Source: an uncultured Candidatus Poseidoniales archaeon (lineage in GTDB: Archaea > Thermoplasmatota > Poseidoniia > Poseidoniales > Poseidoniaceae). Taken from it: 64,000 nt of DNA. Shown here piece by piece: positions 271 through 10,169 of this stretch; position 1 is the stretch's first letter; each line of letters begins with the position of its first letter. The notes below the pieces were generated by a model that saw only the letters and a list, made by a program, of their open reading frames with translations, searched no databases and had not been told where the DNA came from. A program made the translations under genes and the position numbers. Location: positions 68 to 64,067 of the forward strand of contig CAJJAV010000010.1 of assembly GCA_905182125.1 (NCBI GenBank). The letters run 5' to 3'.

Positions 271-2014
271 TCAGTTTTCCTCCACCGTATCGGCGATTTC
301 AGCGGTCATGGTGTCGACCATCGACTCAATAACGTCGACGTAACCCTTCTCGAATCGACCTCGCATGAGGTCGGAGCGGGATGGGACGTTGACAACGTCG
401 TCGAGTTGTGCGCCGCTTGCCATAGCAGACTTTGCAGCGATTCTTGGAACGTTAGATGATGGCCTTGGCCATTTGGTACTGCAAGTGGATGTCACAGTAT
501 GCATCGACTTCGTGGAAACCATTCTGTTGCAAGAAGTATTCACGAATCATCCGTGCGACCTCAAGCGTCAGTTGTTGATCGGTTGGCAGTGCATCGGAAC
601 CGACCAGTTGGACGATTTCTTGCAGTTCTGCTTCAATCTGCAACAGACCACTGATTTGAGTTCGGACTTCTGGGAAGTCTTGTGAAATGTTGTCACGGAA
701 CCATTGGTCGAGGCTTTGTGGGTACAACGAGTAGGAATTCAACCAGTTGATAGCAGGGAAGTGACGTTGTCGTGCAAGACCGGCGTCGAGTCCCCAGAAC
801 ACCTTGACAATTCGCAAAGTACCTTGGGAAACAGGTTCGGAGATATCTCCACCAGGTGGCGAAACTGCACCGATAACGGTGACGGATCCGTCGTCGCCAT
901 TGAGCGTCTCAACACGGCCTGCTCGTTCGTAGAATTCTGCAATTCGGGACGAGAGGTATGCAGGGTATCCTTCTTCGCCAGGCATTTCTTCAAGACGGGA
1001 GGAAATCTCACGCATTGCTTCAGCCCAGCGGGAGGTTGAGTCAGCCATGAGAGCGACGTCGTAGCCCATGTCACGGAAGTATTCCGCGATGGTGATTCCT
1101 GTGTACACAGATGCTTCTCGAGCAGCCACTGGCATGTTAGAGGTGTTTGCAATCATGACGGTTCGCTCCATGAGGGGCTTTCCGGTGTTTGGATCAATCA
1201 AGTGAGGGAATTCGTCCAACACTTCAGTCATCTCATTTCCACGCTCGCCACATCCGATGTAAACCACAAGTTGTGCATCGGAGTACTTTGCGAGTGATTG
1301 TTGGGTGACTGTCTTTCCAGATCCGAACGGACCAGGAATTCCAGCTGCTCCACCCTTAGCGAGTGGGAACAGGAAATCCAGAATGCGCATACCGGTGACA
1401 AGAGGTGTGTCTGGAGCGTACTTCTGCTGGAATGGACGCGGGGTCCGGACGGGCCACTTTTGCATCATCTGCATTTCAGTGCCGTTTTCGAGTACACAAA
1501 CGGTTTGTGTGACGTTGAAGTCGCCGGATTCAATCGACTTCACAGTACCACTCGCAGTCGGAGGGACCATGATTTTGTGAATGATTGTTTCAGTTTCTTG
1601 AACGTGACCGATCACTTGGCCACCGACCACATTGTCACCAACGGCGACTTGTGGGTCAAAGGTCCAGATCTTTTCGAGATCGAAAGCATCAGCGTCAACA
1701 CCACGGGTGATGAAAACACCCATTTCCTTCTCGAGGGTTGGGAGAGGTCGTTGAATTCCATCATAAATTTGGGTCAAGAGACCGGGACCCAATGAAACCG
1801 AGAGGGTTTCTTGAGTGTTCAACACCGGTTCACCGGGTCGAATACCTGAGGTGTCTTCGTACACTTGAATGACGGCTTTATCGCCGTGCAGTTCAATCAC
1901 TTCGCCCATGAGACCTTCGTCGCCAACACGGACGACGTCGTACATAGCTGCTCGCATACCAGTCGCTGTAACAACAGGACCAGAGATTCGGTAAATTACG
2001 CCTTCATTGCTCAT
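271..2014 (-). CDS. atpA: A/V-type ATP synthase subunit A, frameshifted near 455 (probably a sequence error)
   Basis: Walker [17 protein letters not shown] and [10 protein letters not shown] motifs in ORF 452..2029; start 2014 follows a GGAGG RBS; the C-terminal ~55 aa ([29 protein letters not shown]...) lie in another frame ending at 271. Confidence 0.93.
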
Positions 2015-2042
2015 TTTTATTTCCTCCATTTTTGTTGGAACA

Positions 2043-2342
2043 TTACTTCCAAAGGTCGACCCCTATTGCCTTGCGGATGGTGTCCCGCAAAGTGGTGTCT
2101 TCTTCCGTTCCAATGCCAAGCACGGTCGGAGAGACGGATGCCGAGAGTTGGTCACGAAGACGCTCTGGCAAGGCAGCGAGGATTGCGGAGTCGACTACGA
2201 CAATCCCGACGCTTTTGTTGTTGAGAAGTGATTTGAATGTGGAGACCATTGCGTCTTCACCTTCAGGGTTGAGCAGGTGACTGACACCTGCAAGTTGGAA
2301 ACCAAGGGTGAATTCTGGCGTACCTACAACTGCGATATCCAT
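2043..2342 (-). CDS. atpF: A/V-type ATP synthase subunit F
   Basis: [20 protein letters not shown]...[11 protein letters not shown] signature; operon position. Confidence 0.95.
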
Positions 2343-2352
2343 TCCATTCACC

Positions 2353-3396
2353 TCAGTTCAATATGTGTGCTTCCAGCACATCGGTTGGCAAACCCGCTAG
2401 ACGGCCTCGCACAATCAGTCGCAAGTCGTTTACTTCTTGCACCTTCATGGCGATGTAGTGAATGACAGGGAGAGCGGAAACAGGGTGCAGGAAGCTCATA
2501 CGAGCCATCATCTTGTGTTCGCGTTCCTTCAACCAGGTAACGACGACATCGAGGCTTCTGTTTTCCTTTGAGGCCGCAAGAGCTTCTTCAAACGAAGATC
2601 CATCGAAACGAGGCGCTGTTCGGAGCAGGTCGAGCAAAGCGTCTTTTCCACCGGCAGCAATGGCAGAGAAGGAACGCTTAGGCAAAACCCGGCCTCCAGA
2701 AAGGAGCAGGCCGACGGTTTGTTCGTTTGACAACCCCACAGCCTCTGCTTCGAGGATGTTGAGGATGTTGCGATGATCGATTTCAGCAGCAACCAAACCT
2801 CGGAGGAAACGGACAACTGGTCCTTTCCCATTGAGGGCTTGGAGGGCGTGAGCGAAGTAGTGTCGGTCAAGTGCGTCTTCGTAATCTGAGAGACGTGCAT
2901 CGTCTGGTACCGCAGCGAGTGCTGGACCAAACGACTTGCGGCGCATCTGGACCGCAGCGGAGCGCAAATCGTCAGCGCTCTCAATGATCTTGATCCAAGG
3001 CGTGTTAATGTCGTTGAGTTCAGGTAGGATTGCGTGAATGATTTTTTCCATTTCCACATCGTTAGCCACAGACCGAAGAACAACCTTTGCGTTGTGGTAT
3101 TGGTAGCGTGAGGTGTAGATTTCAACCATCGAACGGATTTTTCCGTTACAGATACCAACCATTTTGTCGAGTTCATGTTCGAGGTTGTGGGTAAGGGCGG
3201 CTTCGACCAAGTCGCCACCGGTCAGACGACCGGCGTACAGGTCCATTTCAGCTCGATAGCCAATATCACTGATGGCGACGGTGAGCTGATCTGGGGATTG
3301 GCTGATCAATTGGCGCAAACGGGCACGGTCCGCAAGTTTCTGCCGTCGAGCCTTGGCTCGGGCAGCAACGTATGGTGTGTTTCCTGTCATTACCAT
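2353..3396 (-). CDS. atpC: A/V-type ATP synthase subunit C (d/AC39 family)
   Basis: ~345 aa, YVAARAKARR N-terminus, EIDHRNI and NDLRLIVRGR motifs; lies between atpE and atpF. Confidence 0.9.
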   Translation of the reverse strand: MVMTGNTPYVAARAKARRQKLADRARLRQLISQSPDQLTVAISDIGYRAEMDLYAGRLTGGDLVEAALTHNLEHELDKMVGICNGKIRSMVEIYTSRYQYHNAKVVLRSVANDVEMEKIIHAILPELNDINTPWIKIIESADDLRSAAVQMRRKSFGPALAAVPDDARLSDYEDALDRHYFAHALQALNGKGPVVRFLRGLVAAEIDHRNILNILEAEAVGLSNEQTVGLLLSGGRVLPKRSFSAIAAGGKDALLDLLRTAPRFDGSSFEEALAASKENRSLDVVVTWLKEREHKMMARMSFLHPVSALPVIHYIAMKVQEVNDLRLIVRGRLAGLPTDVLEAHILN

Positions 3397-3405
3397 AATC
3401 ATCCC

Positions 3406-3966
3406 TCAGTCAAATAGAATTTTGTTGGTGGAACTCAATTGGTCTTTCCACGACGTTTCGAGAAGTGTGTCGAAACGCATGTCGTATGATACCGAGCCGT
3501 CGGTGGCTTCGAGGACAAATCCTCCAAGACCATCAACAGCGTCGCCCATTCCTCGCTTTCCAGCGAGTTCCGAGAGCGCCTTTCGATCCATCTCAACAGG
3601 GCGGACATTGAAGTCCTTGCCAATCTCGTCAGCCTTTGCCATGAGGGACTTGAGCAAACTAGCTCGTCCTTTCATTTTCGGGCTGCTGAGTTCTGCATGA
3701 GTCATGGCCAAGGTTTCGTCGAGCACCTTGCGTCGAGCGACAAGAATTTCCTTTTGGTTGGCTTGTCGAGCACTGGCCACAATTTCGCGAGCAAGTTGAG
3801 TTGCTTCACGTTCGGTGCGGCTGGCCGCTTCGGAGCGGATTGTTACAGCCTTCGCCGTTGCTTCAGCCACGATAACATCGGCTTCTTTCTGAGCCTCTGT
3901 GATCATAGCATCGGCTTCCGCCTTGGCTGATTTTGAGATATCTTTTGCGAGTGTTTCAAGCGTCAT
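3406..3966 (-). CDS. atpE: A/V-type ATP synthase subunit E
   Basis: Coiled-coil N-terminus, GLGGFVL..DG.VSYDMRFDTLL C-terminus; operon position. Confidence 0.9.
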   Translation of the reverse strand: MTLETLAKDISKSAKAEADAMITEAQKEADVIVAEATAKAVTIRSEAASRTEREATQLAREIVASARQANQKEILVARRKVLDETLAMTHAELSSPKMKGRASLLKSLMAKADEIGKDFNVRPVEMDRKALSELAGKRGMGDAVDGLGGFVLEATDGSVSYDMRFDTLLETSWKDQLSSTNKILFD

Positions 3967-4033
3967 TGTGTTTCCTCCGTAATGGTGATTTCAATTGACC
4001 AAGCGAACTTGGTCCTTCCATCGTTAGGTGTCT

Positions 4034-4339
4034 TCATAGGAAGAGTGGTAGAGCACCGAGAATAACGATAGATTCAGGCAAAGCAGTGAAAATCAATGCT
4101 GGGCCGAACTTGCTTCCGTCTTCTGCGAGCATACCGACAGCTGCGCTGCCAATGGCTGCCTGGGAGAGGCCAGCGCCAATTGCGGCGAGGCCGAGTGCGA
4201 TACCAGCGCCAATGGCTGTGTATCCGTCACCGTCTGATGCTCCGGCTGGGTCTGCTGCTGCTGCGCCTTGAGCAACCATGGTGATGGCTGCCAAAAGGAT
4301 CAGTGTTCTTAGGCTCATTTTTAGGGTGTTTGTGTTCAT
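4034..4339 (-). CDS. atpK: A/V-type ATP synthase proteolipid subunit K/c with N-terminal leader
   Basis: 101 aa from ATG 4339; Gly/Ala-rich hairpin IGAGIALGLAAIGAGLSQAAIGSAAVG...FGPALIFTALPES with the conserved Glu. Confidence 0.93.
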   Translation of the reverse strand: MNTNTLKMSLRTLILLAAITMVAQGAAAADPAGASDGDGYTAIGAGIALGLAAIGAGLSQAAIGSAAVGMLAEDGSKFGPALIFTALPESIVILGALPLFL

Positions 4340-4377: not shown

Positions 4378-6741
4378 TTATTGCCCCTCCAAGTGAAGGG
4401 CGCGGCCACCGAGCGGTGCAAAAGCACGGCCGGATCCGTCGTAGAATTTGCCCATCCATTCCACAAAGTGGAGACGGGCTGCGTGAATTGTAGGTGAAAG
4501 AATGCCAAGCGCTAGAGCAAAGACTTGGACGAAGAGGAAGATTACCATGCACAGAAGAGCTGTCAAGTAACCCGCAGCGCCACCGGCCTCAATGCCAGCA
4601 ACCATGTTTTCCCATCCGAGGACAATGGAGACCTCAGCGATTTTGACACCAGCCACACCAACGGCCATGATGCGCAGGTATGAGAGGGTGTTTGCGAGAA
4701 GGCCGAAGGTTTCGATTGGCCCCATGATGATGCCGCCAGCCCATCCGAAGCCTTCGTACACTGCAAGACCGATGATGAGGCAAACAATGCCGCCGATGAG
4801 CAGGAGGTTCCACAAAGGCTGGAATTCGAACAGTTCATTGTGGCCCATCACGAAGTTTCGGCAGACCATGAAACCACCAGCGAGGATCATCAGCCACGAG
4901 CCCTTTTCGAAGAAAGCAGCAGAGAAGCCGTGCGCCTTGTTGACGTTCATGAAACCGATGATGAGGCCGACCAGAATGTGGAAGACGCCAAGGTAAACTG
5001 CGAGCGCAACATATTGCTCAAGACCGTGACCTGCGCTTGCTCGGTGGAACGGCATGAGGACGAATGGATGGCTGGCATCTCCGAGTCCAGTTAGGACCGC
5101 AATCGATTCTGGCAAGGTGAAGTGGTGTGACCAATCATAGAAAGAAATCAGCGGTGCGATGTGGGGGTGGCCCGCATGGCTGCCGTCCCAGACGAAGCCG
5201 AAGCCTTCTGCGAAAATGATGCCCCAAATGATGCACCAAACGCCCATCCAGCGAAGCACTGTCATGCCTTTTTGGGCCAACGGGTCAACTGCGAATGGTT
5301 TCGAGCCTAGCCAATATGAAAGACCAACAAGAATAGCGCCATAGCCCCAGTCTCCAAGAATCATCCCGTAGATGAACGGGAAGGTCATCATGATCAACAT
5401 CGAAGGTTCGAAGGAACCATACTTTGGACGGCCGACAAGGTCGACGAGCAATTCAAACGGTTGTGTAGCCTTGCCGTTTTGGAATTCAATTGGCGGTGTT
5501 GGCTCATCGTGATGGTCTGCCTTTGCAGGCATGGAACGAATCATGGTCAGGGTAATGTCGAGTTCTGGCAGGTTGATTTTACCATCGCCGTCCAAATCCA
5601 TGGCCTGGACCAGCTTACCAACTTCCCAAGGTGGAAGGTTAGCGATGCTCGCAGACTTGAGCGCTTGTTGGAATTCGTAACTGTCAACCATTCCTGAGTC
5701 ATCGAGGTCGATGGTCTTGAAAAATTGGAAGACAGAGAGTTTGTTCTTGAAAAGATAATCGGAGAGCATGGTCAACTCTTCAGCGTGCTCTTCGTTATGG
5801 GATTCATCGTTGTGGTGGCCGTGATGTGGATCAACATAGGCTTCGATGCTGACGTGAGAGGCGATGCTTCCAAGTTTATCCTGGACCATCTTGCTTTGTG
5901 CAGTCGGGACCCATCCGTCAAGAGCGAAGGCTTGTTCGCTGACTGCGACCAAGGTTGGCGCGGTGTAGATGGCATCTTCACGGGTCAGGAATTCTTCCAA
6001 AGCGACGACATTGCGTGCGTTTCGTTGAACCCATGCATCGAGGGCGTTCTGCGTGGAAACAATGGTGTTCTCAAGGGATGTGATTTCTGAAGCCAAGTCT
6101 TTGGCTTTCTTGGCAGGCGATCCTTCTCCGGCGGGGATTTGAATAGCTTTGGCGCCAAGTTCAGCCAAACATATCTGGACTTCAGCAGCGTGTTGAGTTT
6201 GGCACGCAACCGCCACGACGCCAGGGGCGCTGTGAAGGAGGATTTCCGTGCCAAGGGCTGCGAAAACGGTCTTTGCTTTGCTTGCACGTGCCGTTTCGCC
6301 AACATATACTTCCAAGCCGTCGAAACCGCCCATCAATTCCAGAGGGATGTCGAGGGGCGCGAGGCGCTCAAGGACCTGAAGTTGCTCAGCAAGAGTGCTG
6401 ATCGAGGATTCGCTGTCACGCACAGTGTCGATGTACGCAAGTGCGTCGTCAATTTTTGGACCAAAGTTCTCCATCAGTTTTTTTGCTTCTGCAATTGAAA
6501 GTGGGCCTTCGTTGTTGTTTGCCTTTACTGATGAGGTGACGGCTCGCACTTTGGTGAGCAATGCGCTGACTTGGTTGGCTCCTTCGTTGGAAAGTGCACG
6601 CCCAACGCCGATGCCGTCTTGGAATTGCCCGTACTCTTCGATGTGTACGCATGAAAGCGAAGCACACATCCTGAGCACCTCTTCCATCTTAACGACGGGA
6701 GCCGCCACGGTGAGGCGGGACATTTCTGCGGTGGCGAACAT
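4378..6741 (-). CDS. atpI: A/V-type ATP synthase subunit I (a) with an internal EF-hand pair
   Basis: 787 aa; FELLVDLVGRPKYGSFEPS, YGMILGDWGYG, LSYLRIMAVG (essential Arg) and RLHFVEWMGKFY motifs; insert carries DLDDSGMVDSYE and DLDGDGKINLPE. Confidence 0.95.
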   Translation of the reverse strand: MFATAEMSRLTVAAPVVKMEEVLRMCASLSCVHIEEYGQFQDGIGVGRALSNEGANQVSALLTKVRAVTSSVKANNNEGPLSIAEAKKLMENFGPKIDDALAYIDTVRDSESSISTLAEQLQVLERLAPLDIPLELMGGFDGLEVYVGETARASKAKTVFAALGTEILLHSAPGVVAVACQTQHAAEVQICLAELGAKAIQIPAGEGSPAKKAKDLASEITSLENTIVSTQNALDAWVQRNARNVVALEEFLTREDAIYTAPTLVAVSEQAFALDGWVPTAQSKMVQDKLGSIASHVSIEAYVDPHHGHHNDESHNEEHAEELTMLSDYLFKNKLSVFQFFKTIDLDDSGMVDSYEFQQALKSASIANLPPWEVGKLVQAMDLDGDGKINLPELDITLTMIRSMPAKADHHDEPTPPIEFQNGKATQPFELLVDLVGRPKYGSFEPSMLIMMTFPFIYGMILGDWGYGAILVGLSYWLGSKPFAVDPLAQKGMTVLRWMGVWCIIWGIIFAEGFGFVWDGSHAGHPHIAPLISFYDWSHHFTLPESIAVLTGLGDASHPFVLMPFHRASAGHGLEQYVALAVYLGVFHILVGLIIGFMNVNKAHGFSAAFFEKGSWLMILAGGFMVCRNFVMGHNELFEFQPLWNLLLIGGIVCLIIGLAVYEGFGWAGGIIMGPIETFGLLANTLSYLRIMAVGVAGVKIAEVSIVLGWENMVAGIEAGGAAGYLTALLCMVIFLFVQVFALALGILSPTIHAARLHFVEWMGKFYDGSGRAFAPLGGRALHLEGQ

Positions 6742-6750
6742 GGAACCAGC

Positions 6751-7062
6751 TCACTGTGAATTTACGGTATCGAGAAGATGTGCTACGGCCTTGTCTTTTC
6801 GGCCAGCGGCTGAAGATTCGATTGCATCAACGACTTTTTGGCCGTCCTTAGCAACACCTTCTGCTTCTTTGTTTGCTCCTGCTCGAGCAGCGTCTAAGGT
6901 GGATTGTGTGTCTGCGACCGAACCATCGGTTGCTTCGGTGATCAGTTGCACGGATTGACGCCGAGCATCTGCTGCGATTTTGCTAACTTCTGCTTGGGCA
7001 TTCGCAAGTTGCTTTTCGGCATCTTGTTCTGCTTGCTTGATTTTGCGAAGGACATCGGCCAT
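6751..7062 (-). CDS. atpH: A/V-type ATP synthase subunit H/G (peripheral stalk)
   Basis: MADVLRKIKQAEQDAEKQLANAQ charged coiled coil, ~103 aa; first gene of the atp operon; GGTGA RBS. Confidence 0.85.
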   Translation of the reverse strand: MADVLRKIKQAEQDAEKQLANAQAEVSKIAADARRQSVQLITEATDGSVADTQSTLDAARAGANKEAEGVAKDGQKVVDAIESSAAGRKDKAVAHLLDTVNSQ

Positions 7063-7159
7063 ACCCAAGATAATCACCAGCAAATTCGCTGAACAGGAGG
7101 GGGTTTATGAGGCTAATGGGGGGGGCTCTAGAGGGGTAAAGAGCACCTAGAGCGTTGAA

Positions 7160-7984: not shown

Positions 7985-8788
7985 TCAAGCGATGCGCTCG
8001 ACAGTTTCCGGGGTGATTCCTTCTTCGGGCGTTACCCGGAAAACGAGGATCTTCAAGTTCTCTGGCGCGTTTCTAAATTTGGAAACGATCATTGAGGTTT
8101 CGAAGTCGGTTCCGATGGTACGCACTTTGAACGAGAGAACCATGTCTGCAATCGATGAAAGTTCTTGCTTGATCACGGGGTCAAGACCGTTGGTCGAGAC
8201 CGAGATGAGCAACAATCCGCGATGGAGTTGAGCGTGAGCTTGGAGCATACGCACCATGGCAACAACTCGGGCTGGATCTTCCCGTTGAAGGAAAAAGTCG
8301 AGGCTGTCCACGACCGCTCGGAAGTAAGGACCCAGAGCCATGATTTCATTGGTCACTTCGGTGAGGTAATCTTGGTTGGTTTCATCAACAAAGCGAGTTT
8401 GGGCAAGCCGTTGAATGTCAGCGAGTTGGAAGCCTTCCAAGCGGTAGCGACTGGCAAGCAACTCTCGTTCGAGAACCGTTGAATTGTATTCTTCACCGAT
8501 GGTGCGTACGTTGATGTCCATTGGCCAACTGTATTTTTGGAAAATCCGAACAATCTCTGCTTGGCCTTCGTTTGTCGAGACATAGAGTGTGTTTTCTGAT
8601 TCTTCTGCAGGCGAGGTGAATTGCTTAGCGAACAATTCGCTTCCAGACCCTGTATCGGTGAACGCAATCAACGTGAAACCTCGAGGGATACCACCATGCA
8701 TTTCATTGTCGAACTTAGGCACACCGAAGGAACCCACCATGCTGAAGAACTCTTCATCTTCGGGATCAAAATCAAACTTGCGTGCCAT
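7985..8788 (-). CDS. KaiC/RAD55-like RecA-fold protein with degenerate Walker A
   Basis: FGVPKFDNEMHGGIPRG start, TDTGSGSE in place of GxxGxGKT, VVDSL Walker B region, IVSKFRN. Confidence 0.75.
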   Translation of the reverse strand: MARKFDFDPEDEEFFSMVGSFGVPKFDNEMHGGIPRGFTLIAFTDTGSGSELFAKQFTSPAEESENTLYVSTNEGQAEIVRIFQKYSWPMDINVRTIGEEYNSTVLERELLASRYRLEGFQLADIQRLAQTRFVDETNQDYLTEVTNEIMALGPYFRAVVDSLDFFLQREDPARVVAMVRMLQAHAQLHRGLLLISVSTNGLDPVIKQELSSIADMVLSFKVRTIGTDFETSMIVSKFRNAPENLKILVFRVTPEEGITPETVERIA

Positions 8789-8799
8789 ATCTGTTCACC

Positions 8800-9390
8800 T
8801 CAATGGATAACGACCTGGCCTCGATCGATTAAATCGGTGCAATAAAGATCAAGATTCGACAACACCAATGGCGGTGTTTGATCGGGTACATTCAGAACAA
8901 CGGAAAGGATTTCTCGCTGGCGGAAGGTGTTGATGAAGGTGTGAAGGTATTCCGCAAGAATGCGGTCTTCATTGTAGATGGCAAGTGCGTTGACGCTGTC
9001 GAGGAAGACAAAGTTGCGCTCTGATGAGGTGGTTCGCAAGATGTAGAGGGTGCGAAGAAGCACTGATTCGAGCATGATTGGACTGTCGACGAAGTGAATA
9101 TTGGAATAAGGCACATCCGTCCCGCCGAGGATACCAGATGAGACCAGGTCGATGAACTGGATTTTCGATACATCGATGCCGATGGATTCGAAAGCCTCAA
9201 TGATTTCAACAGCTCCACGGTTTGCGCTGATGTACACGCCACCCATTTCGAACATTTGCATGAGAGGAATGATTGTGCTCGCCGTGACCATGAAGGCGTT
9301 GGAGTTGCCGCAGCGCACTTGCACCGCACTGTTGAGTGCTACTTCGGTGAGTTGTTCTGCTATTCTCTGATCCAGTTCAAACATAATCAT
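8800..9390 (-). CDS. KaiC-associated inactive RecA-like domain protein (DUF835/DUF7504-like)
   Basis: GVYISANRG, IQFIDLVS and FVFLDSVNALAIYN motifs; no P-loop; sits between two KaiC-like genes. Confidence 0.65.
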   Translation of the reverse strand: MIMFELDQRIAEQLTEVALNSAVQVRCGNSNAFMVTASTIIPLMQMFEMGGVYISANRGAVEIIEAFESIGIDVSKIQFIDLVSSGILGGTDVPYSNIHFVDSPIMLESVLLRTLYILRTTSSERNFVFLDSVNALAIYNEDRILAEYLHTFINTFRQREILSVVLNVPDQTPPLVLSNLDLYCTDLIDRGQVVIH

Positions 9391-10169
9391 GACCCCCATC
9401 GCGAGGTTTTATCGCTTTGTGCGCCCCATTTGAGCATTGGTGTGAGCATAACGCCAAGCGGCGTGAGTTCAATGGCGTGTTTGGCACGACTGTGCGCCGT
9501 ACCTCGCATCTTGACCACCTGTAGGAATCGAAGCAAGTGCCCCATTCGTTCCACGTCACCCATCACAATGATGCCGTCAGCGATTGCCTCTTCCACACCG
9601 AATGAAGACCAGTGGGCGTTCTCGGTCGCTGAAGTAATCTCGGAGATGAGGATGGTTGTGCAACCGAGGGTCGCCAATTTCTTTCCAAGAGTGAATAAGA
9701 AGTCACGAATCAGTTGTTCTGATTTGATCTTGTAACAGAGGGTTGTCACCGAATCGATCACAAGTCGCGTCACCCCAATGGTGTTGACAATGTCGACGAT
9801 TGCTTTGATCAAAGCGTGAACGTCATCCAACTCGAACGAGGCTTTTTCCAAGCCGAGCCAAGAGTAAAGAACGTCCATATCAAAAACGTTGATCAGTCCT
9901 GAATCGACCATGTTCATGTCGAAGAAAGCGTATTGGCGGATGTTCTCGAGGAGTTTGACCGATGGTTCAGTTGCGGTGAAATGGGCGCATGCTTCGCCTG
10001 CGAGGGCTCCCCGTACGAGGAACTCCATTCCAAGGGTGGTTTTTCCTGAACCACAAGTACCTGCAGCCAACACGGTGGACCCGTATGGGATACCGCCACG
10101 GAGAATCTCATCCAATCCATGAATCCCAGTGACACATCGGTCCCGGGTGTAAACGGCGGCTGGTTGCAT
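9387..10169 (-). CDS. Single-domain KaiC-like ATPase
   Basis: TGIHGLDEILRGGIP, GTCGSGKTT (intact Walker A), RLVIDSVT (Walker B), EEAIADGII, LQVVKMRGTAHS; start position uncertain. Confidence 0.9.
   Translation of the reverse strand: MQPAAVYTRDRCVTGIHGLDEILRGGIPYGSTVLAAGTCGSGKTTLGMEFLVRGALAGEACAHFTATEPSVKLLENIRQYAFFDMNMVDSGLINVFDMDVLYSWLGLEKASFELDDVHALIKAIVDIVNTIGVTRLVIDSVTTLCYKIKSEQLIRDFLFTLGKKLATLGCTTILISEITSATENAHWSSFGVEEAIADGIIVMGDVERMGHLLRFLQVVKMRGTAHSRAKHAIELTPLGVMLTPMLKWGAQSDKTSRWGS

Follow-up and report, generated by a model that had tools for sequence, protein, structure and literature searches.

Why should the stator of an archaeal ATP synthase carry a pair of EF-hands? This question is raised by atpI, the gene for stator subunit I (a) of an A/V-type ATP synthase, in a stretch of 64,000 nucleotides (the window, here always at its full length) from an uncultured Candidatus Poseidoniales archaeon (GenBank assembly GCA_905182125.1, contig CAJJAV010000010.1, positions 68 to 64,067 of the forward strand). 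The source lineage is Candidatus Poseidoniaceae (Marine Group IIa), among the most abundant surface-ocean archaea, with 10 mM Ca2+ outside the cell. Few machines in biology have been studied as well as rotary ATP synthases, and the regulation known for them involves inhibitor proteins, subunit conformations, reversible dissociation and partner proteins in trans. An earlier note, made from the DNA letters without database searches, had proposed that EF-hands inserted in AtpI act as a Ca2+-sensing switch. As far as sequence comparison goes, the element itself is real: a conserved EF-hand pair, under purifying selection, is situated where the arm of subunit I meets its membrane domain. What it does there can be stated less firmly.

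The EF-hand module inside AtpI

The host protein shares its family, fold and operon context with the prokaryotic A/V-ATPase subunits I/a of Thermus (6QUM/5GAR/5Y5X chain N), E. hirae (NtpI, 8WCI) and Meiothermus (3RRK). Pfam V_ATPase_I (PF01496) matches it with 110.8 bits (cut-off 30.7, E 6.6e-32), and the NCBIfam PRK05771 models of V-type ATP synthase subunit I reach E 4e-106, which is under their own equivalog cut-offs. An AlphaFold2 (AF2) model made from a 53-sequence alignment (mean predicted local distance difference test score, pLDDT, 74.7; predicted template-modelling score, pTM, 0.50) predicts the family fold, i.e. a two-lobed cytoplasmic arm, in which a long coiled coil joins two alpha/beta lobes, and a C-terminal multi-helix membrane domain. 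Its best Foldseek matches are subunit a of the T. thermophilus, yeast and mammalian enzymes (E 2e-22 to 1e-16), headed by chain N of the T. thermophilus V/A-ATPase (6qum_N, E 2e-22). The essential arginine of the membrane domain (R690, in LSYLRIM) does not vary among the 53 sequences and lines up with the motif of Thermus and Enterococcus, and the gene order around atpI on the minus strand, atpH-I-K-E-C-F-A, is that of the standard archaeal A1AO operon.

It is the hinge that differs: the solved or otherwise retrieved subunits have no folded domain there, whereas this AtpI has a module of ~87 residues between the cytoplasmic arm and the membrane domain, composed of an amphipathic helix (helix 0) and two EF-hands. 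The arm profile aligns to 3rrk and to residues 4-315 of the T. thermophilus subunit, and the membrane domain to residues 308-645 of the latter and to E. hirae NtpI. In a profile search of PDB sequences the insertion point falls at about Thermus residues 311-316, with the junction aligned to Thermus 'FEPVDEHHEADRIPVVLDNPPWVKPFELLV', which is behind the final strand of the proximal lobe in the arm (a_sol) and before the membrane domain (a_CT), which opens with PPIEF/FELLVDLVGRPKYG. The arm of subunit I binds the peripheral stalks and the A1 head, and the module is therefore cytoplasmic.

Four Pfam EF-hand families match residues 338-393 above their gathering scores: in the full-length protein EF-hand_7 scores 33.6 (cut-off 30), EF-hand_1 31.6 (25.4), EF-hand_6 29.5 (25) and EF-hand_5 28.3 (25.9), while an excised stretch of 112 aa gives E 4.2e-9 for EF-hand_7 (PF13499) and E 6.6e-10 for EF-hand_1 (PF00036). 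Finding these families and V_ATPase_I in one protein was the HMMER check that the earlier note had proposed, and the positions it gave for the two loops are exact (Table 1). Residues 321-402 are predicted by AF2 to fold as a separate domain (pLDDT 72-80) on two disordered tethers, for which DSSP gives a paired helix-loop-helix arrangement with a short antiparallel sheet between the loops, as in a textbook EF pair; the helix-loop-helix context read from the letters is thereby borne out in the model. The label 'calmodulin-like' holds in so far as the module is a single lobe, but calmodulin is two-lobed, with four EF-hands and a central linker between the lobes, and here there is one pair with an extra helix in front.

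Full-length matches to AtpI occur in most genomes of the same GTDB genus (57-83% identity), while two genomes of that genus and all genomes of other families match over residues 1-316 and 409-787 only, in frames of ~685-740 aa. Extraction yielded 101 subunit I sequences, 68 with the insert and 33 without. Among the bearers are a metagenome-assembled genome (MAG) of MGIIa-L1, the single-cell genome AG-333-I22 and the 2-Mb MG-II chromosome CM001443.1; the insert is absent from a sister clade in the same genus, Poseidonia spp., an MGIIa-L2 MAG and the other families. When aligned to the insert-less relatives, the insert is a clean extra block (94 aa vs 2-6 aa in the same columns), which confirms its position between arm and membrane domain, and the net size of the protein is 787 aa compared to ~687 aa in the sister clade. 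In a maximum-likelihood tree of the non-insert columns, all 48 non-redundant insert-bearing sequences form one clade (Shimodaira-Hasegawa-like approximate likelihood-ratio test, SH-aLRT, 99), and its sister is the insert-less clade of the same genus. With a single clade of bearers and an insert-less sister, the tree therefore indicates one gain, in a subclade of one Poseidoniaceae genus, and loss in none of the 48 non-redundant descendants. Conservation across the clade, which the earlier note had put forward as a check, is thus complete among the insert bearers (ligands kept in 68/68) but does not extend over the Poseidoniales, being confined to this one subclade. An exhaustive HMMER scan of 1.84 billion representative proteins for any other subunit I with an EF insert of its own matched flanks and EF-hands together in the cluster of this clade only; ten further matches compatible in length and position had no V_ATPase_I domain.

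Some database labels are at odds with this distribution. Typical Poseidoniaceae atpI genes occur in MAGs labelled Flavobacteriales and Rhodobiaceae (L033, CALKHD010000188.1, and L103, CALDQY010000012.1, respectively), and these contigs are probably mis-binned. The insert-bearing AtpI cluster P0019 lists a longest contig of 104,430,999 bases, far above any archaeal genome, which is probably a contaminant within a eukaryotic assembly.

The loops were scored with the PROSITE EF-hand pattern (PS00018), which is matched by both loops in all 68 insert-bearing AtpI, far more than chance would give. Down to 57% overall identity, ligand positions 1, 3, 5, 9 and 12, Gly6 and the hydrophobic residue at position 8 are kept in 68/68. 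The invariant residues of loop 1 are D345, D347, S349, G350 and E356 (positions 1, 3, 5, 6 and 12), with D or E at position 9; those of loop 2 are D382, D386, G387, N390 and E393 (positions 1, 5, 6, 9 and 12), with D or N at position 3 (residue 384). The ratio of non-synonymous to synonymous substitution rates (dN/dS; Nei-Gojobori, 67 pairs) is 0.034 for the module; the cytoplasmic arm has 0.052, the membrane domain 0.030, the N-side tether 0.075 and the C-side tether 0.137. Mean pairwise identity follows the same order, with 0.41-0.48 in the His-rich tracts versus 0.67 in the EF module. Because the tracts evolve faster than the module, selection acts mainly on the latter.

The His/acid-rich stretches on either side (DPHHGHHNDESHNEEHAEE and KADHHDEP) had been taken for part of the insert. 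They are present, but they are not part of it: insert-less Poseidoniales have at the same place a hinge of 16-23 aa with 5-9 His (e.g. EYVEDHHHAGDEGHQHTN), and T. thermophilus carries 'VDEHHEADRIP' at the equivalent position (with an EHHEAD core). Since both the insert-less relatives and Thermus have a His hinge there, the alignments identify the flanks as host sequence rather than cassette, i.e. the insertion split an older, ancestral His-rich hinge. In all insert-bearing AtpI the tethers measure 20-25 aa on the N-side and 11-15 aa on the C-side, so that their length is conserved while their sequence evolves fast, and in combination (~21 + 13 aa) they exceed the ancestral hinge of ~18 aa.

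Origin of the module and EF-hands elsewhere in the lineage

A second protein of the same genome (G000; contig C6, L021 2672..4648 (-)), a polytopic membrane protein of 658 aa, ends in the same helix and EF pair. Over 99 aa that take in helix 0, its tail and the AtpI insert share 65% identity (E 3e-41), and the two hosts have in common the extra helix (E-L-x-M-L-x-x-Y-L), a PPW between the EF-hands and an NLPEL motif. In helix 0, residues E322, L323, M325, L326, Y329 and L330 are invariant or nearly so in AtpI inserts and paralog tails alike. As helix, PPW and NLPEL are kept in both hosts, the unit that moved is 'helix + EF pair'. A word-limited database search with the insert alone returned only these two host families, both from Poseidoniales, and the close form of the module (at least 50% identity) turned up only in the AtpI and paralog families and in some short unclassified fragments.

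The family of this second host occurs order-wide, including family f2 and genomes with an insert-less AtpI. It always bears an EF pair near the C-terminus (not at an internal hinge, as in AtpI), often followed by a SAP domain, and some members have two EF pairs (P0125). Because the tail is order-wide and the insert clade-specific, the copy would have gone from tail to AtpI, within the lineage. The 87-column tree of modules, which were extracted by a loop-anchored pattern, resolves weakly; in it the AtpI modules nest among the paralog modules of the genus, with the f2 paralogs outside. Taken together, it seems that the module was probably copied within the genome from the C-terminal tail of an order-wide membrane protein, and we regard the account of its anatomy and origin as highly probable.

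The putative donor is a protein of 12-14 transmembrane segments, for whose membrane part Pfam gave no match. Its AF2 model (pLDDT 69.7, pTM 0.67) resembles the cbb3 oxidase subunit CcoN (9g6b_A/3mk7, E 7e-9, TM-score 0.76-0.78 normalised to the target), followed by nitric oxide reductase (NorB) and ba3 oxidase. The set of six His that ligate two hemes and CuB is lacking, only H84 and H268 being invariant in the membrane part (28 sequences). Going by the model, the protein is a heme-copper-oxidase fold without the metal ligands and not a canonical oxidase. A gene for a YchF/Obg-like GTPase lies directly downstream of it (L021 1360..2652).

Two further ideas on the module were dropped. An 'HNDE' ahead of it in both the AtpI and the paralog of this genome was considered as a recombination scar, but other AtpI inserts do not have it. 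A lanmodulin-like reading had only the NCBIfam LanM match of the paralog (E 0.15) behind it, and the loops have no Pro at position 2.

EF-hands had been called rare in archaea, which fails for this lineage. This genome has 17 EF-hand_7 matches; genomes of the genus have 6-18 each and those of the other families 1-8, whereas just one of 14 control genomes has any. Many of the matches in the lineage are Ca-binding repeats of surface proteins, and an EF-loop regular expression run on the genome mostly caught thrombospondin-type-3-like repeats of such proteins, not EF-hands; a hidden Markov model built from the modules proved so specific that it could not serve as an inventory of EF-hand proteins in this genome. 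True EF pairs are nevertheless also found on a zinc-ribbon membrane protein, a permease-like transporter and a secreted multi-EF protein. EF-hands are therefore a speciality of this lineage and not a rarity, and Poseidoniaceae-specific gene modules with calcium-binding domains have been reported, where the ATP synthase is not mentioned (PMC9258230).

The zinc-ribbon protein (597 aa; contig C27, L022 2205..3998 (+)) has an N-terminal double zinc ribbon, two EF-hand pairs and a membrane segment, with very acidic linkers and tail, and the same architecture recurs in the genus (P0289, P0242, P0225). The transporter (contig C3:126197-127912 (+)) is polytopic and ends in an EF-hand pair, of which the first loop is degenerate (DFGKKNHLTLPE) and the second canonical (DADENGVIDIDE). 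An EF pair was also looked for in NuoL of this genome (contig C9:221-1837 (+)), where only a His/Asp-rich loop (HEMHHAHHHLHHHDGHGDDHDDHHDDD) was found. On the same contig, the nuoL C-terminus and nuoM are split over several frames (2623-4265), which suggests indel errors in the MAG.

Possible function at the stator hinge

Canonical loops with all ligands in place make it likely that the AtpI module binds Ca2+. Whether the enzyme is regulated by it is less evident, and we would put such regulation at somewhat under an even chance. On our best reading of the data, the module would serve the stator hinge as a clutch or brake that depends on Ca2+. In this mechanism a separately folded cytoplasmic domain would be held by the two flexible His/Asp-rich tethers at the base of the proximal lobe of the arm, and would bind Ca2+ at both loops. 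In the bound state it would expose a hydrophobic cleft and so take up, or let go of, an amphipathic helix. This helix could be helix 0 of the module itself, or it could belong to subunit d/C, to the loops of the c-ring or to the proximal E/H stalk. Tethers of ~21 + 13 residues could reach all of these, as well as the membrane surface, and the atpC product (subunit d/C) is a candidate target. As a consequence, stator compliance might be altered or the rotor braked, which would tie the activity or assembly of the ATP synthase to cytoplasmic Ca2+.

The site fits such a role. In Thermus the proximal subdomain is the pivot of the arm, and contacts between a_sol and subunit d mechanically block rotation in isolated Vo (PMC7367684); the insert lies at this very hinge. 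For the combination of a helix with EF-hands, the best analogue is the ATP-Mg/Pi carrier (APC/SCaMC), in which the EF-hands, once they hold Ca2+, capture an amphipathic helix from their own chain (the 'locking pin') and thereby release the transporter (PMC6283063). That carrier, however, is eukaryotic, has four N-terminal EF-hands and has been studied experimentally, whereas AtpI has one internal pair that is predicted from sequence. Ca2+-calmodulin binds subunit a1 of the V-ATPase V0 (Drosophila V100) in trans, and so places an EF-hand sensor at the cytoplasmic N-terminal part of a member of the same family (PMC3987144). Here the differences are that calmodulin is a separate protein of four EF-hands and affects SNARE assembly, not pumping, while the archaeal AtpI has one EF pair in cis.

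Several points weigh against the favoured account of origin and function. The closest relatives (the sister clade, Poseidonia and MGIIa-L2) run the same ATP synthase without the module, which therefore cannot be essential to the machine. The AF2 model (pTM 0.50) places the module unreliably relative to the rest of AtpI, so that no contact partner can be derived from it, and the 87-column module tree resolves neither the exact donor nor the monophyly of the AtpI modules. Both Ca2+ binding and an effect on the enzyme are inferred. To our knowledge, cytoplasmic Ca2+ signalling is essentially uncharacterised in archaea. Finally, the EF-like domain of mEAK-7, a V-ATPase partner, is structural, has lost its ligands and binds no Ca2+ (PMC9263379).

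The last example leads to the most serious alternative, namely that the module is a constitutive structural or docking domain, either permanently loaded with metal (Ca2+ or Mg2+) or independent of it, which binds a partner. The ATP synthase could then be tethered to a protein that also recognises the module on the oxidase-fold protein, or the two modules could pair; the presence of the same module on two membrane proteins of one cell fits a shared partner as well as a shared ligand, and strong purifying selection shows that there is a function, not which one. A purely structural domain, however, usually lets its ligands drift, as happened in mEAK-7, whereas all Ca-ligand positions, including the bidentate Glu12 and Gly6, are kept in 68/68 AtpI modules and in the paralog tails. 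Moreover, the cytoplasmic site implies a low resting Ca2+, at which a canonical loop would normally alternate between the free and the loaded state. Structural docking is, for these reasons, a minority possibility, though one of some weight. It is rather improbable that the functional unit is instead the His/Asp-rich hinge, as a tether sensitive to pH or transition metals, with the EF pair an accessory that merely lengthens or stiffens it or helps to bind a metal other than Ca2+. The hinge is the older element, in Poseidoniales as in Thermus, its tethers grew with the insertion, and the His/Asp-rich NuoL loop of this genome, which has no EF pair, indicates that such tracts are a habit of the lineage in bioenergetic membrane proteins. 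Yet the tracts evolve faster than the module, and the chemistry of the loops (all-oxygen ligands, Glu12) is that of a Ca2+ site and not of one for Zn, Ni or Cu.

The two remaining explanations would deny the module a role altogether. It might be a neutral passenger domain tolerated in a disordered linker, with no function in the ATP synthase, since it sits in a flexible low-complexity hinge, where insertions do least harm, and close relatives do without it. Against this, its dN/dS is as low as that of the membrane domain, it was neither lost nor decayed in any of the 48 non-redundant descendants, which have diverged to 57% identity, and its ligands and hydrophobic core are invariant. The match of both loops to the EF-hand pattern throughout, together with the invariant ligand positions and the low dN/dS, makes a neutral passenger very unlikely, and the idea is strongly disfavoured. 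Nor can the insert well be an assembly or binning artefact, such as a chimeric contig joining atpI to an EF-hand gene, although the MAG does show apparent indel errors elsewhere (the frame break at the atpA C-terminus, the split nuoM): 68 loci have the insertion in frame at the same site, and they come from dozens of independent studies and assemblers, with the single-cell genome and the 2-Mb chromosome among them, and the phylogeny of the insert tracks that of the rest of the gene. With so many independent assemblies carrying it, an artefact is refuted for practical purposes.

The overall reading that is favoured, a copied helix + EF-pair module at the stator hinge that responds to Ca2+ and couples the ATP synthase to cytoplasmic Ca2+, stands at about even. 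Both the machine and the domain described here are known; their combination is conserved but undescribed, and it occurs at a site that matters mechanically. In agreement with the earlier note, which knew of no precedent, the literature searched contained no published description of an EF-hand in any A/V-ATPase subunit I/a, and a Ca2+-binding domain within the stator polypeptide is likewise undescribed in that literature and, outside this clade, did not turn up in the scan of 1.84 billion representative proteins. The nearest published case is ICAP2, an apicomplexan homologue of the F-type b-subunit and hence also a rotary stator subunit with a predicted Ca-binding domain (PMC6133553). ICAP2 differs in being F-type, mitochondrial and another subunit, it is unrelated in sequence and position, and its domain was proposed by fold recognition only (74.5% probability).

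A bolder version, which we consider doubtful as a whole, would make this enzyme, from a dominant clade of surface-ocean archaea, the first among rotary ATPases to have a Ca2+ sensor built in. The EF lobe of the hinge would then be a Ca2+-dependent clutch or brake acting on the rotor (subunit d, c-ring) or on stator compliance. 'Helix + EF pair' would be a mobile, lineage-wide cassette, copied onto several cytoplasmic loops or tails in membrane proteins of energy conversion and transport (the oxidase-fold protein, AtpI, the permease), through which cytoplasmic Ca2+ would directly coordinate membrane bioenergetics. Should Ca2+ indeed switch the enzyme, Ca2+ signalling and energy conversion would for the first time be directly linked in archaea, in Marine Group IIa of all groups. 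Apart from that, the locus appears to be a clear case of domain shuffling, in which the tail of a cofactor-less oxidase relic supplied a regulatory cassette, and a copy of it made within the genome ended up in the hinge of an ATP synthase. As the module is small and self-contained, Ca2+ binding is directly testable with a recombinant peptide, despite the organism being uncultured.

Coordinates of the module and the surrounding operon

Table 1. Features of atpI and its operon in the window, with residue numbers of AtpI where these apply
Feature	AtpI residues	Position	Strand	Basis
atpI, A/V-type ATP synthase stator subunit I (a)	787 aa	4378..6741	(-)	Pfam, NCBIfam, AF2 and Foldseek
Cytoplasmic N-terminal arm (a_sol)	1-305	5827..6741	(-)	AF2 pLDDT mostly 80-94
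N-side tether, His/Asp/Glu-rich, partly ancestral hinge	306-321	5779..5826	(-)	pLDDT <50 for 306-318
Helix 0 of the module (E-L-x-M-L-x-x-Y-L), amphipathic	322-332	5746..5778	(-)	AF2 helix 321-332
EF-hand 1	337-363	5653..5733	(-)	AF2 helix 337-343, strand 351-353, helix 354-363
EF-hand 1 loop, DLDDSGMVDSYE	345-356	5674-5709		
EF-hand 2	374-402	5536..5622	(-)	AF2 helix 374-381, strand 388-390, helix 391-402
EF-hand 2 loop, DLDGDGKINLPE	382-393	5563-5598		
C-side tether, His/acid-rich	403-415	5497..5535	(-)	pLDDT <50 for 404-411
Membrane domain (a_CT), begins PPIEF..FELLVDLVGRPKYG	416-787	4378..5496	(-)	Alignment to solved subunits
atpH, peripheral-stalk G/H-like subunit, upstream in operon		6751..7083	(-)	Pfam V-ATPase_G_2 E 4e-4, below gathering score, and operon position
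atpK, c subunit/proteolipid		4034..4339	(-)	Pfam ATP-synt_C E 4.4e-12
atpE, peripheral-stalk E subunit		3406..3966	(-)	Pfam vATP-synt_E E 8.9e-11
atpC, subunit d/C, rotor socket		2353..3402	(-)	Pfam vATP-synt_AC39 E 2.6e-47
atpF		2043..2351	(-)	Pfam ATP-synt_F E 1.4e-13
atpA, catalytic A subunit, C-terminus in another frame		452..2029	(-)	Pfam ATP-synt_ab E 3.4e-76

Within the operon, atpA ends early, ATP-synt_VA_C being matched over only 1-83 of its 101 positions, and its C-terminus seems to run on in another frame (window open reading frame 271..543). The break is probably a one-base indel of the assembly and not a real truncation. In the c subunit (101 aa) the single hairpin is preceded by an additional hydrophobic, signal-like stretch at the N-terminus, and a partial Na+-site-like motif is made up of a Gln in its helix 1 (GLSQAAIG) and a Glu-Ser pair in its helix 2 (ALPESIV). 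Downstream of the ATP synthase operon lie three linked genes of KaiC/RecA fold (window 7985..10169, including the open reading frames 7985..8788 and 8800..9399).

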